Source: Minisyncoccota bacterium (GTDB lineage Bacteria; Patescibacteriota; JACMRA01). Taken from it: 64,000 bases of DNA. Where the stretch lies: positions 4,159 through 68,158 of the forward strand of contig JAYVFR010000023.1 of NCBI GenBank assembly GCA_043772945.1, in the 5' to 3' direction. Numbering within the stretch: position 1 is the first letter of the stretch; each line of letters opens with the position of its first letter. Shown piece by piece: positions 57,808 to 64,000 of the stretch. The notes under the pieces are model-generated. The model worked only from the letters and a program-made list of their open reading frames with translations, was not told where the DNA came from and searched no databases. The position numbers were made by a program, and so were the translations under genes.

Positions 57808-58434
57808 TTGTTTTTACCCCCCCTCATTTTAAAAACGATTAAATTTCAATTATTTATCTTTATGATTTTTAATTTTAGTTTTCTTAGTTTTAATTCTACC
57901 GTGTCAGCTCTAGCAAATACCAATTCAGAATTTTTAAATTCTTATACAATTAATTTTAACGAGGGATCAAGCCTCAAAGACACTTCGGAGGTTATCAATC
58001 AAATTCTCATTAGCACAAAAGATGAAAAAGATTCAAAAATAAACATTCAATTAAATAGTGAATTAGAAACTGATAAAGCTATCTTGCCTATTAGTTTAAC
58101 GCTTGAATCAAATAATACTGATTCAGATATTCAAAATAAATTCCAACAAGCTAAAGATACTCAAATAAAGAGTTTAAAGGATCTAAAAGCCCAAACCTCT
58201 AAAGCTATTGATTTTAAGGTTAAAGTTGCTAATCAAATCAGCCTGGCAGATTCAACAGCTTCTAAAATTAGTTCTGATGTCAATACATTAGATTTAATTA
58301 ATAATATAGAACTAGATGATTTGAATGCTCTGGAGACAATTAATCAAAACCTTTTTTCTCTTGAGCAAATTCCTACAATTTCTCTGGAAGTTCAAACGCT
58401 GCAGGATTCAAACGCTGTAGGATTCAAACGCTGA
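57808..58434 (+). CDS. signal-peptide-bearing N-terminal fragment of the split lectin-toxin gene
   Basis: 208 aa. The likely start is the ATG at 57862 (MIFNFSFLSFNSTVSALA). The ORF ends inside a 16-nt tandem repeat, and the next ORF continues in the +1 frame. Confidence 0.55.
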   Translation: MFLPPLILKTIKFQLFIFMIFNFSFLSFNSTVSALANTNSEFLNSYTINFNEGSSLKDTSEVINQILISTKDEKDSKINIQLNSELETDKAILPISLTLESNNTDSDIQNKFQQAKDTQIKSLKDLKAQTSKAIDFKVKVANQISLADSTASKISSDVNTLDLINNIELDDLNALETINQNLFSLEQIPTISLEVQTLQDSNAVGFKR

Positions 58435-58436
58435 TA
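58389..58436 (+). repeat. 3 x 16-nt tandem repeat at the junction of two ORFs
   Basis: Units are agttcaaacgctgcag, gattcaaacgctgtag and gattcaaacgctgata. The 11-nt core ttcaaacgctg is perfect in all three. Confidence 0.9.
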
Positions 58437-58438
58437 AA

Positions 58439-60418
58439 ATGATTTTAAAGCTCTCTAGTGAATTAGATTCTAATCTAAACAGCACAGTAAACAAAAATAT
58501 TAAACTTAAAAGTAATTCAAAAGCCGAATTTAATCAGACTAATCAAGTTTTTGAGGACTATATTAAAGAAGTAGAATTAGAATCAAAATTAGCAACTGAA
58601 AACGCTCAAGAAGCAAGACCTGAATTTGATGCTCTTTACCAAAGCGATTATACAGATGGCGAGCTTAATCAGTTAATTGCTAAATGGGAACGCAAGCCCA
58701 AAGTAATTAACGTCCCAACTTTCAGAGAAATTTTAACTACAACAAGTTTGGATGAGATGACTGAATTAGAGGTTTCTAACATTAGTCAATTAGAAGCAAA
58801 GAGTGCTATTGAGAGACTAAATCGCGAAAAGACTATTAGCGGAGAAACTAAGCCTCAAACTAACCTAGATCAAGCTACTCCAACAATTGAAAAAGTTTCT
58901 AAAGACAGAGCTAAAAACACTTTGGCTCCTATAATTAATTCAACTATTAAATTGCAGATTGCTAATCCAAACTTTAAAGACGTTGTTAAAGAAAAACAAG
59001 CAAATCAAAAAATTCTAGACGAGCAACAGAAACAAGTAGAAACCCAGGATAAAATCCAGCGACTAGAAAAAGAATTTAAACAGAATAATAAACAACCAAC
59101 AACCGAATTAGAGAAACTAGATTATGAATCAAATAGAACTAATTATTTAATTGATAATGACAGTAATTTAACCACAGACCAAAAAACTCAAGCTAAAAGA
59201 AATTACAAAAATACTTTAAAGAGAAATAGTCCAAGTAATCAATCAAGTTCATCACAGTCTTCCCGCTCTCAAAGTTCAAGTGACAATTCAAGTACTTCAT
59301 CTCAGACAAACAACAGCTCAAGCTCCTCTAACTCAAGCCCAATAGTATTAAATAATAATCAGCCAAGTTCTAATAATTGGGTTACTAGCCTTGCTAACGC
59401 AGTTTTTGGAGGTGGTATTCAGGCGGAGGCTAAAGGATTAAACAACTCTGACACAGCCTTATCAATTTATTCATGGGACTATAATGGTGGCTTTGCCTTG
59501 GATATACCGAACGGGAATACAAACATCGGGACACAAATTGCAGTGAATTATAATAATAACGATAATGCTCAGAAATGGTGGACGAATAACAGCCAAGAGA
59601 TTAGATCTAAGCTAAATACAGACAGATGTTTAGATATTAGCGGAGGAAATTATACTAATGGAACTACAATAGCCTTGCATTATTGTACAGGCAACGATGC
59701 TCAGAAGTTCTTTTTTTATGGGAATACTTTGCGGTCTTGGGCTAATCCAAATTATTGTATAGATGTACCGAGTAATAACTGGACTCCGAATGTAGTTCAA
59801 TTATGGGATTGCAATAGTAGCGGTGCTCAGAAATTCGTCCCAGGAGACAACGGCTTCAACAACACCTTCCAAGTCCAGATAGCTACTAATGGAGGTATTT
59901 TAGCAGGTAATGGATTAAGCTCTGGTCATACTTTTGTAATTTTCAAAACTAATAACCAATTGAATAACACTATGTCGCTTTGGCCAGATTATGACACAAA
60001 TTGTGATAATGGTCGCCCAGGTTGGGCAAGTACTAGAGACTTTTTAAGACAAAATAATATGTGTGATTTTGATGGAGTAAAAGTTGACTGGGAAAAAACT
60101 CAAACAGAAGGAGATTTATACTATGCCTTAAATACAGCCAATACTGGATTTACCGTTAAGACGACTAGCATTAAAAAAACAACATCCGATCTTTATAGAT
60201 TTGGTGGTGGCTATCGCATAGGAGATAATTGGGGTCGTGATAATGTGAATTACGATTACAATGCTTTTTGGTGGGGAGCAAACAGAAATAATGGAAATTG
60301 TGTGTCTTTTTCTCAATATCTTTGGAATGATATGATGTCAACAGATGGAAAGTTATTTATGCGAATTAAACCTGATGCAGTGATCTCAGCACCTGCTACA
60401 TTATTGAACTATTATTAA
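58439..60418 (+). CDS. ricin-type beta-trefoil lectin protein with uncharacterised His...Cys C-terminal domain (putative toxin)
   Basis: 659 aa with no signal peptide of its own. A Ser-rich linker is followed by three QxW-type repeats (AQKWW, AQKFFF, AQKFV) at about aa 330-470. The C-terminal ~175 aa contain GHTFVIF and NGNCVSFSQYLW. Confidence 0.7.
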   Translation: MILKLSSELDSNLNSTVNKNIKLKSNSKAEFNQTNQVFEDYIKEVELESKLATENAQEARPEFDALYQSDYTDGELNQLIAKWERKPKVINVPTFREILTTTSLDEMTELEVSNISQLEAKSAIERLNREKTISGETKPQTNLDQATPTIEKVSKDRAKNTLAPIINSTIKLQIANPNFKDVVKEKQANQKILDEQQKQVETQDKIQRLEKEFKQNNKQPTTELEKLDYESNRTNYLIDNDSNLTTDQKTQAKRNYKNTLKRNSPSNQSSSSQSSRSQSSSDNSSTSSQTNNSSSSSNSSPIVLNNNQPSSNNWVTSLANAVFGGGIQAEAKGLNNSDTALSIYSWDYNGGFALDIPNGNTNIGTQIAVNYNNNDNAQKWWTNNSQEIRSKLNTDRCLDISGGNYTNGTTIALHYCTGNDAQKFFFYGNTLRSWANPNYCIDVPSNNWTPNVVQLWDCNSSGAQKFVPGDNGFNNTFQVQIATNGGILAGNGLSSGHTFVIFKTNNQLNNTMSLWPDYDTNCDNGRPGWASTRDFLRQNNMCDFDGVKVDWEKTQTEGDLYYALNTANTGFTVKTTSIKKTTSDLYRFGGGYRIGDNWGRDNVNYDYNAFWWGANRNNGNCVSFSQYLWNDMMSTDGKLFMRIKPDAVISAPATLLNYY

Positions 60419-63573: not shown

Positions 63574-63758
63574 AAAGTTTGTATCACTTCTTCTTTTTTA
63601 AATTTATATTTTTTTAAATTATTTTTATAACTATCACAATTGTAAGTGATCTCCGCTCTAGGAGCAAACATATAGATTATAAATAAAGATGGAAATACAA
63701 CAATAGCAAGTAGCGTTAATATGATTGATTTTTTAGTTATTTTAAACATAAAATACAA
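63528..63758 (-). pseudogene. probable truncated N-terminal fragment of a tail-motif family member
   Basis: The N-terminus (TM helix, then EITYNCDSYKNNLKKYKF) resembles family members for about 55 aa. The frame then runs antisense through the end of the 531-aa gene. It starts 4 nt after the stop of the upstream minus-strand member. Confidence 0.3.
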
Positions 63759-63761
63759 ATC

Positions 63762-64000
63762 CTACTTTAACTCAAACTTAGCTTTAATTTCAGCAGAACA
63801 ATCAGGATAATCAGTCTCACCCGTTCGGTTTAGAAGGTAGCAATATTCTGAATTAGTTATTTTATTAATCTCTGTGATTGTGTCAATATTTAGAGATTTA
63901 CAACTTGAATATTTTTTAAAATCTAATTTAATGTCTTCAATAATTGATTGCGATAAGAAATTATCATAATTTCCAAAAAGTATATACTTGTTATTGTATA
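63762..64000 (-). CDS. tail-motif family member on the minus strand, 5' end outside the window
   Basis: Translates to ...NSEYCYLLNRTGETDYPDCSAEIKAKFELK followed by a stop (TAG at 63762-63764). Confidence 0.55.
   Translation of the reverse strand, partial: YNNKYILFGNYDNFLSQSIIEDIKLDFKKYSSCKSLNIDTITEINKITNSEYCYLLNRTGETDYPDCSAEIKAKFELK

Follow-up and report, generated by a model that had tools for sequence, protein, structure and literature searches.

A probable Sec-dependent, lectin-bearing polymorphic toxin-immunity locus in a Patescibacteria-type bacterium

Organisation of the locus

The present study concerns a candidate polymorphic toxin locus at the end of a 64,000-nucleotide (nt) window, meaning the whole stretch of DNA analysed, from contig JAYVFR010000023.1 (assembly GCA_043772945.1). 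All coordinates are positions in this window, and comparison contigs and proteins are designated by L and P numbers, respectively. The locus comprises, in order, a toxin gene, a membrane-protein gene, an orphan copy of the end of the toxin (the tip), a second membrane-protein gene, a gene for a 531-amino acid (aa) fusion protein and finally genes on the minus strand. A previous reading made from the DNA letters alone (the sequence-only reading) had listed the open reading frames (ORFs) of this region, and each was found where it had been placed. In the following list CTD denotes the variable C-terminal domain of the toxin, TM stands for transmembrane, and tail family denotes membrane proteins with a four-cysteine (4-Cys) ectodomain that typically ends in a nearly invariant tail.

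57808 to 58434, plus strand: 5' part of the toxin gene, encoding a signal peptide or signal anchor and a family-specific N-terminal region; severed by a frameshift
58391 to 58433, plus strand: 16-bp tandem repeat TTCAAACGCTGCAGGA, 2.7 copies (TRF)
58439 to 59482, plus strand: toxin stalk, a long, polar, low-complexity, Ser-rich region with no Pfam domain, ~93% identical to P0002
59483 to 59836, plus strand: ricin B-type beta-trefoil lectin, residues 349-466 of the 659-aa ORF, with three Q-x-W/F repeats
59834 to 60418, plus strand: variable CTD of 194 aa, residues 466-659 of the 659-aa ORF; presumed toxic, catalytic module
60434 to 61051, plus strand: 205-aa candidate cognate immunity protein with two N-terminal TM helices, an extracytoplasmic 4-Cys ectodomain and the invariant tail
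61061 to 61324, plus strand: 87-aa orphan CTD tip corresponding to CTD residues ~107-194, including the SD.YRF motif, the candidate Cys helix and the C-terminal helix
61334 to 61963, plus strand: 209-aa tail-family membrane protein, candidate immunity partner of the 87-aa orphan tip
61978 to 63573, plus strand: 531-aa fusion of a polytopic membrane domain (~330 aa) and a tail-family 4-Cys ectodomain
63528 to 63758, minus strand: 76-aa truncated tail-family gene encoding a TM helix and the start of the ectodomain, without the tail
63762 to 64000, minus strand: 3' part of a 152-aa tail-family gene, whole in L001 and L002; the minus-strand array continues past the window

The same locus is present on two contigs, L001 and L002, the former of which extends past base 64000 and reaches 2.1 kb beyond the window. 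The extension reveals a second array, encoded by the minus strand and convergent with the first. Read along its own strand, its visible part opens with a tail-family gene of which only the 3' end is on the contig, continues with a 78-aa orphan tip and three further tail-family genes (183, 152 and 152 aa) and finishes with the truncated 76-aa gene; the head of the array is situated past the contig end.

A toxin gene split by a 16-bp duplication

Hydrophobic residues 2-21 at the N-terminus of the ORF at 57808-58434, followed by ...STVSA/LA, constitute a predicted export signal that is confined to this 5' ORF and is also present in the intact allele. The sequence-only reading had regarded this ORF and the adjoining lectin ORF (58439-60418) as a signal-peptide fragment and a separate protein; they are in fact one gene of ~865 aa, split by duplication of a 16-bp unit. 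An exhaustive HMMER scan with the CTD, covering 1.84 billion representative proteins at E <= 1e-3, retrieved an intact 866-aa allele (P0002) from contig L003 of another metagenome, and DNA alignment indicates that L003 has one repeat unit fewer than the window and an uninterrupted toxin gene. The additional unit at about 58407-58422 shifts the reading frame by +1 where the two ORFs meet, and its in silico removal yields an 864-aa frame that aligns with P0002 from end to end and straight over the junction (...LEVQTLQDSNADKMILKLSS...). Contig L001 carries the identical duplication; it probably derives from the same population and hence provides no independent confirmation. Reading the split gene under genetic code 25 (UGA=Gly) was rejected, as the two ORFs lie in different frames and the intact allele differs by one 16-nt unit. 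The stop codons of the long ORFs in the window are 27 TAA, nine TAG and three TGA.

The intact toxin of ~865 aa thus comprises a signal peptide or anchor, a polar stalk, a ricin B lectin and a CTD of ~190 aa. The ricin beta-trefoil lectin of the sequence-only reading is borne out by Pfam Ricin_B_lectin (PF00652), which matches the 659-aa ORF well above its cut-off (E 1.2e-16, 61.5 bits versus 29), as well as by PF14200 and NCBIfam lectin models; the repeat motifs in the translation are AQKW, AQKF and AQKF, and sugar binding is predicted. As that reading had also noted, the usual delivery domains are missing: the Pfam scan of both toxin ORFs returned ricin lectin families only, with no RHS, haemagglutinin repeats, DUF1020, VENN, PxxxxDPxGL, LXG or WXG100, and NCBIfam, PADLOC and PHROGs added nothing.

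Because the frameshift cuts off the signal-bearing 5' ORF, the lectin-CTD part would not be exported by Sec in this genome, while the downstream immunity genes are intact. The locus is either in a toxin-off, immunity-on state or in early decay, and the 16-bp duplication itself could be a reversible on/off switch or, alternatively, a fixed lesion. Breakage takes other forms in related loci, with an in-frame TAA between the signal-bearing and lectin-CTD parts of the L032 toxin gene (8192-10507) and a frameshift immediately before the tip in that of L036 (739-3080). Losing the weapon and keeping the membrane-protein genes seems to be a common outcome. A short toxin of 354 aa on L037 (200-2099) comprises lectin and CTD without signal or stalk and overlaps the end of an unrelated 280-aa gene, with a tail-family gene still downstream, which suggests either that its delivery differs or that it is one more truncated copy.

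Allelic replacement of the C-terminal domain and its partner

Comparison of the window with L003 reveals a sharp discontinuity. DNA identity is 90-97% from 57673 to about 59815, breaks at 59816-59875 and falls to 55-70% from the start of the CTD (59834); it stays at background through the body of the immunity gene and returns to 70-80% in the tail (60946-61050). At the protein level, the window toxin and P0002 are ~93% identical over the first ~675 residues (signal, stalk and lectin) and ~55% identical in the CTD, the lectin being ~95% identical between close alleles, and the 205-aa protein and its 284-aa counterpart in L003 are only 24% identical outside the tail. The comparison between relatives suggested by the sequence-only reading thus placed the identity break exactly at the CTD start, with the partner diverging along with the CTD. 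A conserved delivery part combined with a replaced CTD and a replaced partner is the pattern by which polymorphic toxin-immunity pairs are defined (PMC3482391).

A small family of C-terminal domains

The exhaustive scan identified 15 CTD matches among the 1.84 billion proteins; a word-indexed protein search with the CTD returned the query itself only, and its profile version returned seven proteins. Additional members were located on contigs L015, L029, L032 and L037, and a scan of metagenomes contributed one new real locus (L032) plus a copy (L033) of a known one. L034 and L035 were considered as CTD loci and rejected, since they have only FDLYRFGGGY in common with the family and their proteins are unrelated. 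Family members are either fragments or consist of a hydrophobic N-terminus, a long polar region, a ricin lectin and the CTD, and the lectin directly precedes the variable domain in every member that covers this region.

An alignment of 21 sequences revealed invariant or near-invariant positions throughout the CTD (His32, Asn45-Thr46, Ser48, Asp54, Asn74-Asn75, Asp80, Asp94, Ser118-Asp119, Arg122, Arg128, Tyr140, Asn155-Cys156, Ser160, Trp164-Asn165 and Met168). Candidate catalytic residues are His32 (16/16 sequences), Asn45 (16/16) and Cys156 (19/19). Cys156 is never lost, whereas Cys57 and Cys77 are lost jointly in P0004 and P0015; we read the latter pair as a putative structural disulfide, which would therefore be a sign that the CTD is located outside the cytoplasm. 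In the AlphaFold2 model of the domain (pLDDT 69.6, pTM 0.74), His32 and Asn45 lie on two successive strands, and a helix has Cys156 at its N-terminal end. The predicted order is accordingly a His on a strand, Asn45 13 positions later on the next strand, and a Cys in N-C-x-x-F. Circularly permuted papain-like hydrolases (LRAT/PLAAT group) share an arrangement of a His and polar strand with a Cys-bearing helix, their catalytic Cys lying in NCEHF. The residue order and predicted secondary structure suggest, as a lead based on resemblance and short of established membership, that the CTD may be a permuted papain-like (NlpC/P60, LRAT-like) Cys-His-Asn hydrolase.

Linked membrane-protein genes

A membrane protein is encoded by the next gene in all 12 CTD loci examined, with a gap of 8-25 nt where measured; in the window the 205-aa gene begins 15 nt past the toxin stop. 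These partners belong to the tail family in seven loci, are small polytopic proteins in four and are of another type in one. Tail-family genes follow the CTD in the window, L003 (284 aa), L005 (144 aa plus another), L006-L009 (176 aa), L015 (145, 165 and 152 aa), L037 (157 aa) and L014 (a 160-aa variant ending ...DYPMCNF). Small polytopic proteins occupy this position in L004 (163 aa), L032 (152 aa), L036 (144 aa) and L029, in which the 180-aa polytopic gene is followed by five tail-family genes, and the next gene in L010 encodes a 367-aa TM protein. The association also holds in the reverse direction: two tail-family proteins retrieved independently (P0021 and P0023) trace back to arrays headed by a lectin-CTD gene. 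Hidden Markov models (HMMs) of the CTD and the tail family found no match in the first 57 kb of the window or in 11 related-genome loci syntenic for the neighbouring lysyl-tRNA synthetase (LysRS). The genome-wide scatter of downstream genes, unlinked to such domains, that would have spoken against the sequence-only reading is not seen in the available data.

A six-frame translation of the 64 kb contains four instances of the tail motif C-Y-L..(D)YP[DE]CS.EIKAKF, always within the locus. Five proteins with this motif had previously been counted; the fifth (63528-63758) is instead a truncated N-terminal fragment that is recognised by the family HMM (E 1.4e-5). This 76-aa gene closes the convergent minus-strand array, shares 46 nt with the end of the 531-aa gene, and has an N-terminus near-identical to that of the intact 157-aa protein downstream of the P0016 toxin on L037. 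An inversion between inverted tail repeats was rejected as the source of the fragment, as it would swap tails and truncate nothing.

Across 18 aligned tail-family proteins, four cysteines (just past the TM anchor, in mid-domain, in C-Y-L and in YP.C) and Y-P are invariant, so that the conserved unit is the whole 4-Cys ectodomain, more than the tail alone. One or two N-terminal TM helices precede the ectodomain, and the charges on either side of them predict that it lies outside the cell. The bodies of these proteins are typically 20-30% identical, against near-invariance of the tail. Between 60995-61038 and 61913-61956, 44 nt of tail-coding DNA are 100% identical, in paralogues that are otherwise only ~23% identical in protein, and this DNA also forms an inverted repeat with the minus-strand genes (63519-63570 versus 63768-63819, 83% complementary). 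The identity and the inverted copies together suggest gene conversion or a recombination arm.

The 531-aa protein had been described as polytopic with the C-terminal domain of the tail family; a TM scan bears out the polytopic domain, and the tail HMM recognises the C-terminal part. The N-terminal part is homologous (29% identity, E 1e-28) to a 311-aa protein that stands alone at the end of the L016 array. Immediately downstream of the tail-family and polytopic genes of L016 comes a gene of the Barstar family (RNase inhibitor; L016 1547-1855), which may be part of a wider orphan-immunity island. No membrane-protein family has a Pfam match above threshold. SLATT membership of the 205-aa protein was rejected as a chance result, being sub-threshold (16 bits versus 29.5 in Pfam, 17 versus 60 in NCBIfam, E 1.7e-4 in PADLOC) and limited to one of 18 family members. 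A scan of GTDB species representatives with the tail-family alignment gave 18 pattern matches, none of which was confirmed, indicating that the family is absent or undetected there.

Orphan tips and recurrence of the cassette order

The 87-aa ORF, described beforehand as an orphan copy of the toxin end, indeed matches residues 580-641 of the 659-aa ORF with 49% identity (BLASTP, E 1e-16), corresponding to HMM positions 97-173. Three such tips are known, namely those of the window (87 aa), L001 (78 aa, 15782-16018) and L036 (71 aa, 3812-4027). All three start at or just past SD.YRF and keep the Asn-Cys helix and other tip residues, and each has its own start codon a few nt past the preceding stop and a membrane-protein gene next to it. 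The order toxin, immunity, tip, immunity thus recurs in three independent arrays (the window, the L001 minus strand and L036). The last is the most informative, since it builds this order with two polytopic proteins in place of tail-family ones, and these have homologues among the proteins that accompany full-length toxins, in L032 (41% identity) and L004 (34% identity).

Genomic setting and host

The window is chromosomal, carrying genes for SecY, IF-2, PNPase, FtsW and LysRS. The best LysRS matches (55-61% identity) are to metagenome-assembled genomes (MAGs) labelled Peribacteria, Peregrinibacteria, Gracilibacteria and Patescibacteria, one of them from a glacier-fed stream, and no genome closer than these was found among GTDB representatives. 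The host is accordingly assigned, on sequence similarity, to a putative Gracilibacteria/Peregrinibacteria-like member of the Patescibacteria, in agreement with the small-genome, episymbiont-type organism that had been supposed from the DNA. G+C content across 60-64 kb (the immunity array) is 26-28%, versus 29-36% in the remaining window, which fits foreign origin or simply AT-rich membrane-protein genes. Some toxin relatives adjoin an integrase, ParA, TnpB and a DUF3854 primase-like gene, and others a TrwC relaxase and a PIF1 helicase, neighbourhoods that are consistent with mobile conflict genes. No relatives of the locus were found in the viral contigs and plasmids searched, and a promoter and terminator scan gave no excess over shuffled sequence.

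Comparison with known systems

In MafB/MafI, CdiA-CT/CdiI and Rhs systems, a conserved N-terminal part precedes a variable C-terminal toxin with an adjacent immunity gene and orphan CT-immunity pairs downstream, the orphans carrying the whole toxin domain, often with near-identical upstream DNA. The locus resembles these systems, including those of Neisseria (MafB/MafI), in its between-strain identity break at a fixed boundary; it differs in that the orphan begins inside the domain, at SD.YRF, and has a DNA identity of 66% to the expressed copy. A close organisational parallel is the Sec-exported class ('T2SS', type II secretion system) of polymorphic toxins described by Zhang, Aravind and colleagues in 2012, in which RicinB domains beside C-terminal toxin modules and Sec export are already recorded (PMC3482391). 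As in the present locus, these proteins have a signal peptide, a non-catalytic middle and a RicinB-type domain near the variable C-terminal module, and their genes are followed directly by an immunity gene, stand-alone C-terminal cassettes and more immunity genes (PMC3482391). In contrast, the locus is without RHS or filamentous repeats or a releasing peptidase, has partial-domain orphans and a Patescibacteria-type host, and its CTD and immunity proteins match no Pfam family. The features by which polymorphic toxins are recognised (PMC3482391) are nonetheless found here: a presumably secreted multidomain protein with an N-terminal signal and a C-terminal CTD (here split by a frameshift), CTD variability, a co-varying adjacent membrane-protein gene with a predicted immunity role, and stand-alone cassettes.

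Lectins have been linked to target choice in two other settings. Streptomyces umbrella toxin particles are secreted polymorphic toxins in which lectins that bind glycopolymers of the cell surface determine the target range (PMC11062931, PMC13274773); they are multi-protein complexes (UmbA lectins, UmbB and UmbC), whereas here lectin and toxin form one polypeptide, and no sequence relationship was detected between umbrella toxins and the proteins of the locus. Lectin-like bacteriocins (LlpA) are secreted antibacterial proteins whose lectin domains select targets among close relatives (PMC6240691), but they consist of lectin domains of the monocot mannose-binding type and lack both a separate catalytic domain and an immunity gene, unlike the ricin-type lectin, CTD and linked membrane proteins described here. 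With regard to the NlpC/P60 superfamily (LRAT/PLAAT and type VI secretion system effectors such as TseH), the candidate residue order is alike and there is no significant match. Judged by defining domains, of which none was found, the locus belongs to none of the Sec-exported, MafB, CDI/Rhs, umbrella and LlpA families.

Interpretation

We consider that the locus is probably a Sec-dependent, lectin-bearing polymorphic toxin-immunity system of a Patescibacteria bacterium. The organisation proposed in the sequence-only reading finds support in the identity break at the CTD, the diverging partner, the linkage in 12 of 12 loci and the orphan units in three arrays. The toxin would be exported by Sec by means of its N-terminal signal peptide or anchor, the ricin B lectin would presumably bind a surface glycan of the target cell, and the CTD hydrolase would act on the outer face of the envelope. 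The predicted target is peptidoglycan or membrane lipid, because the candidate immunity proteins are positioned on the outward side of the membrane, and an extracytoplasmic site of action is also signalled by the four invariant cysteines of the tail family, the joint loss of Cys57 and Cys77, and the hydrophobic N-terminus of the toxin. At that site, outward-facing membrane proteins would protect the producer and its kin. One immunity type would be an N-terminal TM anchor with a disulfide-bonded 4-Cys ectodomain and the other a small polytopic protein. In this view, strains differ in having exchanged the CTD and the body of the immunity gene beside it as a pair, former C-terminal tips and their own immunity genes persist downstream as orphan cassettes, and extra immunity paralogues accumulate, with a second array converging from the opposite strand.

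Several observations weigh against this interpretation. The CTD (last ~190 aa) has no match in Pfam, NCBIfam, PADLOC, PHROGs or the PDB sequence set; it had been left unassigned beforehand, and searches of Pfam (even at E 10), NCBIfam and PDB sequences, the last also with a profile, were all empty. The structural comparison recommended at that stage found no significant fold match, although the profile work did uncover the invariant His32, Asn45 and Cys156. Foldseek comparison of the CTD model, itself only of moderate confidence, with PDB and BFVD gave nothing significant (best hit TseH, E 0.74, TM 0.25), and hhalign against human PLAAT3 gave a probability of 0.2% with the NC motif alone aligned to NCEHF, which is no evidence of relationship. 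The AlphaFold2 model of the ectodomain is poor (pLDDT 46.7), and a near-invariant tail is unusual for a specificity-determining immunity protein. Immunity-like genes outnumber toxins, with up to five to six tail-family or polytopic genes per toxin (L029), and three of ~12 toxin genes are broken (window, L032 and L036). The orphan tips span the C-terminal ~40% of the CTD and are without His32, Asn45 and an export signal, and would therefore be inactive alone if the hydrolase hypothesis holds. The window tip and the expressed copy have only 66% DNA identity with a longest exact match of 9 nt, which offers no stretch suitable for homologous recombination, and the tips are therefore more readily seen as displaced relics or a slow-turnover reservoir; the cassette exchange envisaged in the sequence-only reading is not borne out as an ongoing process of homologous recombination. 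Finally, the comparative evidence is thinly sampled, all of it coming from short metagenomic contigs from a handful of samples.

A bolder version of the toxin-immunity interpretation, which we regard as doubtful, treats the locus as a lineage-restricted toxin system based on half-domain cassettes. The exchange unit would be the tip with its catalytic Cys helix together with the variable immunity body, bracketed by SD.YRF and the invariant tail as conserved arms, and the enzyme would be an unrecognised permuted Cys-His-Asn envelope hydrolase delivered by stalk and lectin without a specialised secretion system. The invariant immunity tail might then act as a common active-site plug.

An unlikely alternative that fares best among those departing from toxin-immunity conflict is a host-directed effector of an episymbiont, in which the stalk-lectin-hydrolase opens the host envelope, the membrane proteins shield the producer's own envelope and diversity tracks the host surface. 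The organism is Patescibacteria-like, a group known for epibiotic lifestyles (PMC8080830, PMC13622651), a long stalk carrying lectin and enzyme at its far end would be well suited to reaching an adjacent cell, and a membrane-anchored coiled-coil region is fused to alternative peptidases in patescibacterial operons (PMC12419801). Host tracking should, however, vary the lectin, which is ~95% identical while the CTD and its partner vary; the extra immunity-like genes and orphan tips are hallmarks of kin conflict, and the frameshift in this genome shows that the toxin gene can be dispensed with.

Arrays of paralogues with a conserved end and hypervariable bodies would also be produced by a non-toxic surface system, in which a lectin adhesin and variable surface proteins provide antigenic or phage-receptor variation and the repeats and orphans are by-products of recombination. 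The 16-bp repeat could then switch expression, the 44-nt identical tails suggest gene conversion, and no toxin fold is detectable. We nevertheless regard this reading as improbable, given that an invariant His, Asn and unpaired Cys in CTDs that are 35-55% identical point to catalysis over binding, that some partners are small polytopic proteins without an ectodomain, which fits protection better than display, and that sharp co-replacement of CTD and partner is typical of toxin-immunity pairs. Least likely of all is a CTD that serves as a Cys-His peptidase or transpeptidase of sortase-like logic, cleaving or attaching the membrane proteins via their tail, since the far better conservation of the tail (C-Y-L...YP.CS.EIK..F) than of the protein remainder and the presence of several tail proteins downstream of a single CTD gene are outweighed by the CTD being the most variable part of the toxin when a reader of an invariant signal should be conserved, by five CTD loci without a tail gene immediately next (L004, L032, L036, L010 and L029, where tail genes come after the polytopic one), and by a tail at the extreme C-terminus with no anchor after it, unlike known sorting signals.

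Other features of the window

The LysRS gene (53083-55545, minus strand) encodes 820 aa with a fused C-terminal AlaX-like module (tRNA_SAD / tRNA-synt_2c), a fusion common, at full length, to only one related MAG found (GFS_9266). A tRNA-Ile with anticodon UAU (7737-7813, minus strand) adjoins tRNA-His (8423-8497); tRNA-Ile with this anticodon is uncommon among bacteria. Genes for a VirD4/TraG-like coupling protein and a VirB4/TraC-like ATPase, both components of type IV secretion or conjugation, are located at 4936-7650 and 10979-13411 on the minus strand, ~45 kb from the toxin locus. The minus strand also encodes a 1083-aa single-chain restriction-modification protein (40891-44142) that combines an HsdR N-terminal-like region, an N6 DNA methylase and Methylase_S (type I specificity), as well as a PNPase-like protein (15376-17469; RNase PH, KH and S1) in which a HAD-like hydrolase match at residues 69-229 occupies the usual place of the first RNase PH domain. 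A 603-aa protein encoded at 36892-38703 has a glycoside hydrolase family 113 domain (E 2.9e-46).

Significance

The new elements described here are the CTD family, the 4-Cys tail family with its polytopic partners, the partial-domain orphans and the phylogenetic setting. The first defines a new toxin-domain family of which ~20 sequences are known, and the second a new family of membrane-anchored 4-Cys immunity proteins with associated polytopic proteins, at least two pairs of which are homologous between loci, toxicity and neutralisation being predicted for the respective families. The partial-domain tips, if functional, would extend the rules of cassette exchange known from contact-dependent inhibition (CDI), Rhs and MafB, and a frameshifted toxin with intact immunity genes fits the familiar outcome of keeping the antidote and losing the weapon. 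To our knowledge, the interbacterial weapons of Patescibacteria (candidate phyla radiation, CPR) are almost uncharacterised, and these bacteria lack the classical contact-dependent secretion machines. The locus provides a concrete example of how a CPR cell may fight its siblings or act on its neighbours by means of Sec export, a lectin and a small catalytic domain.

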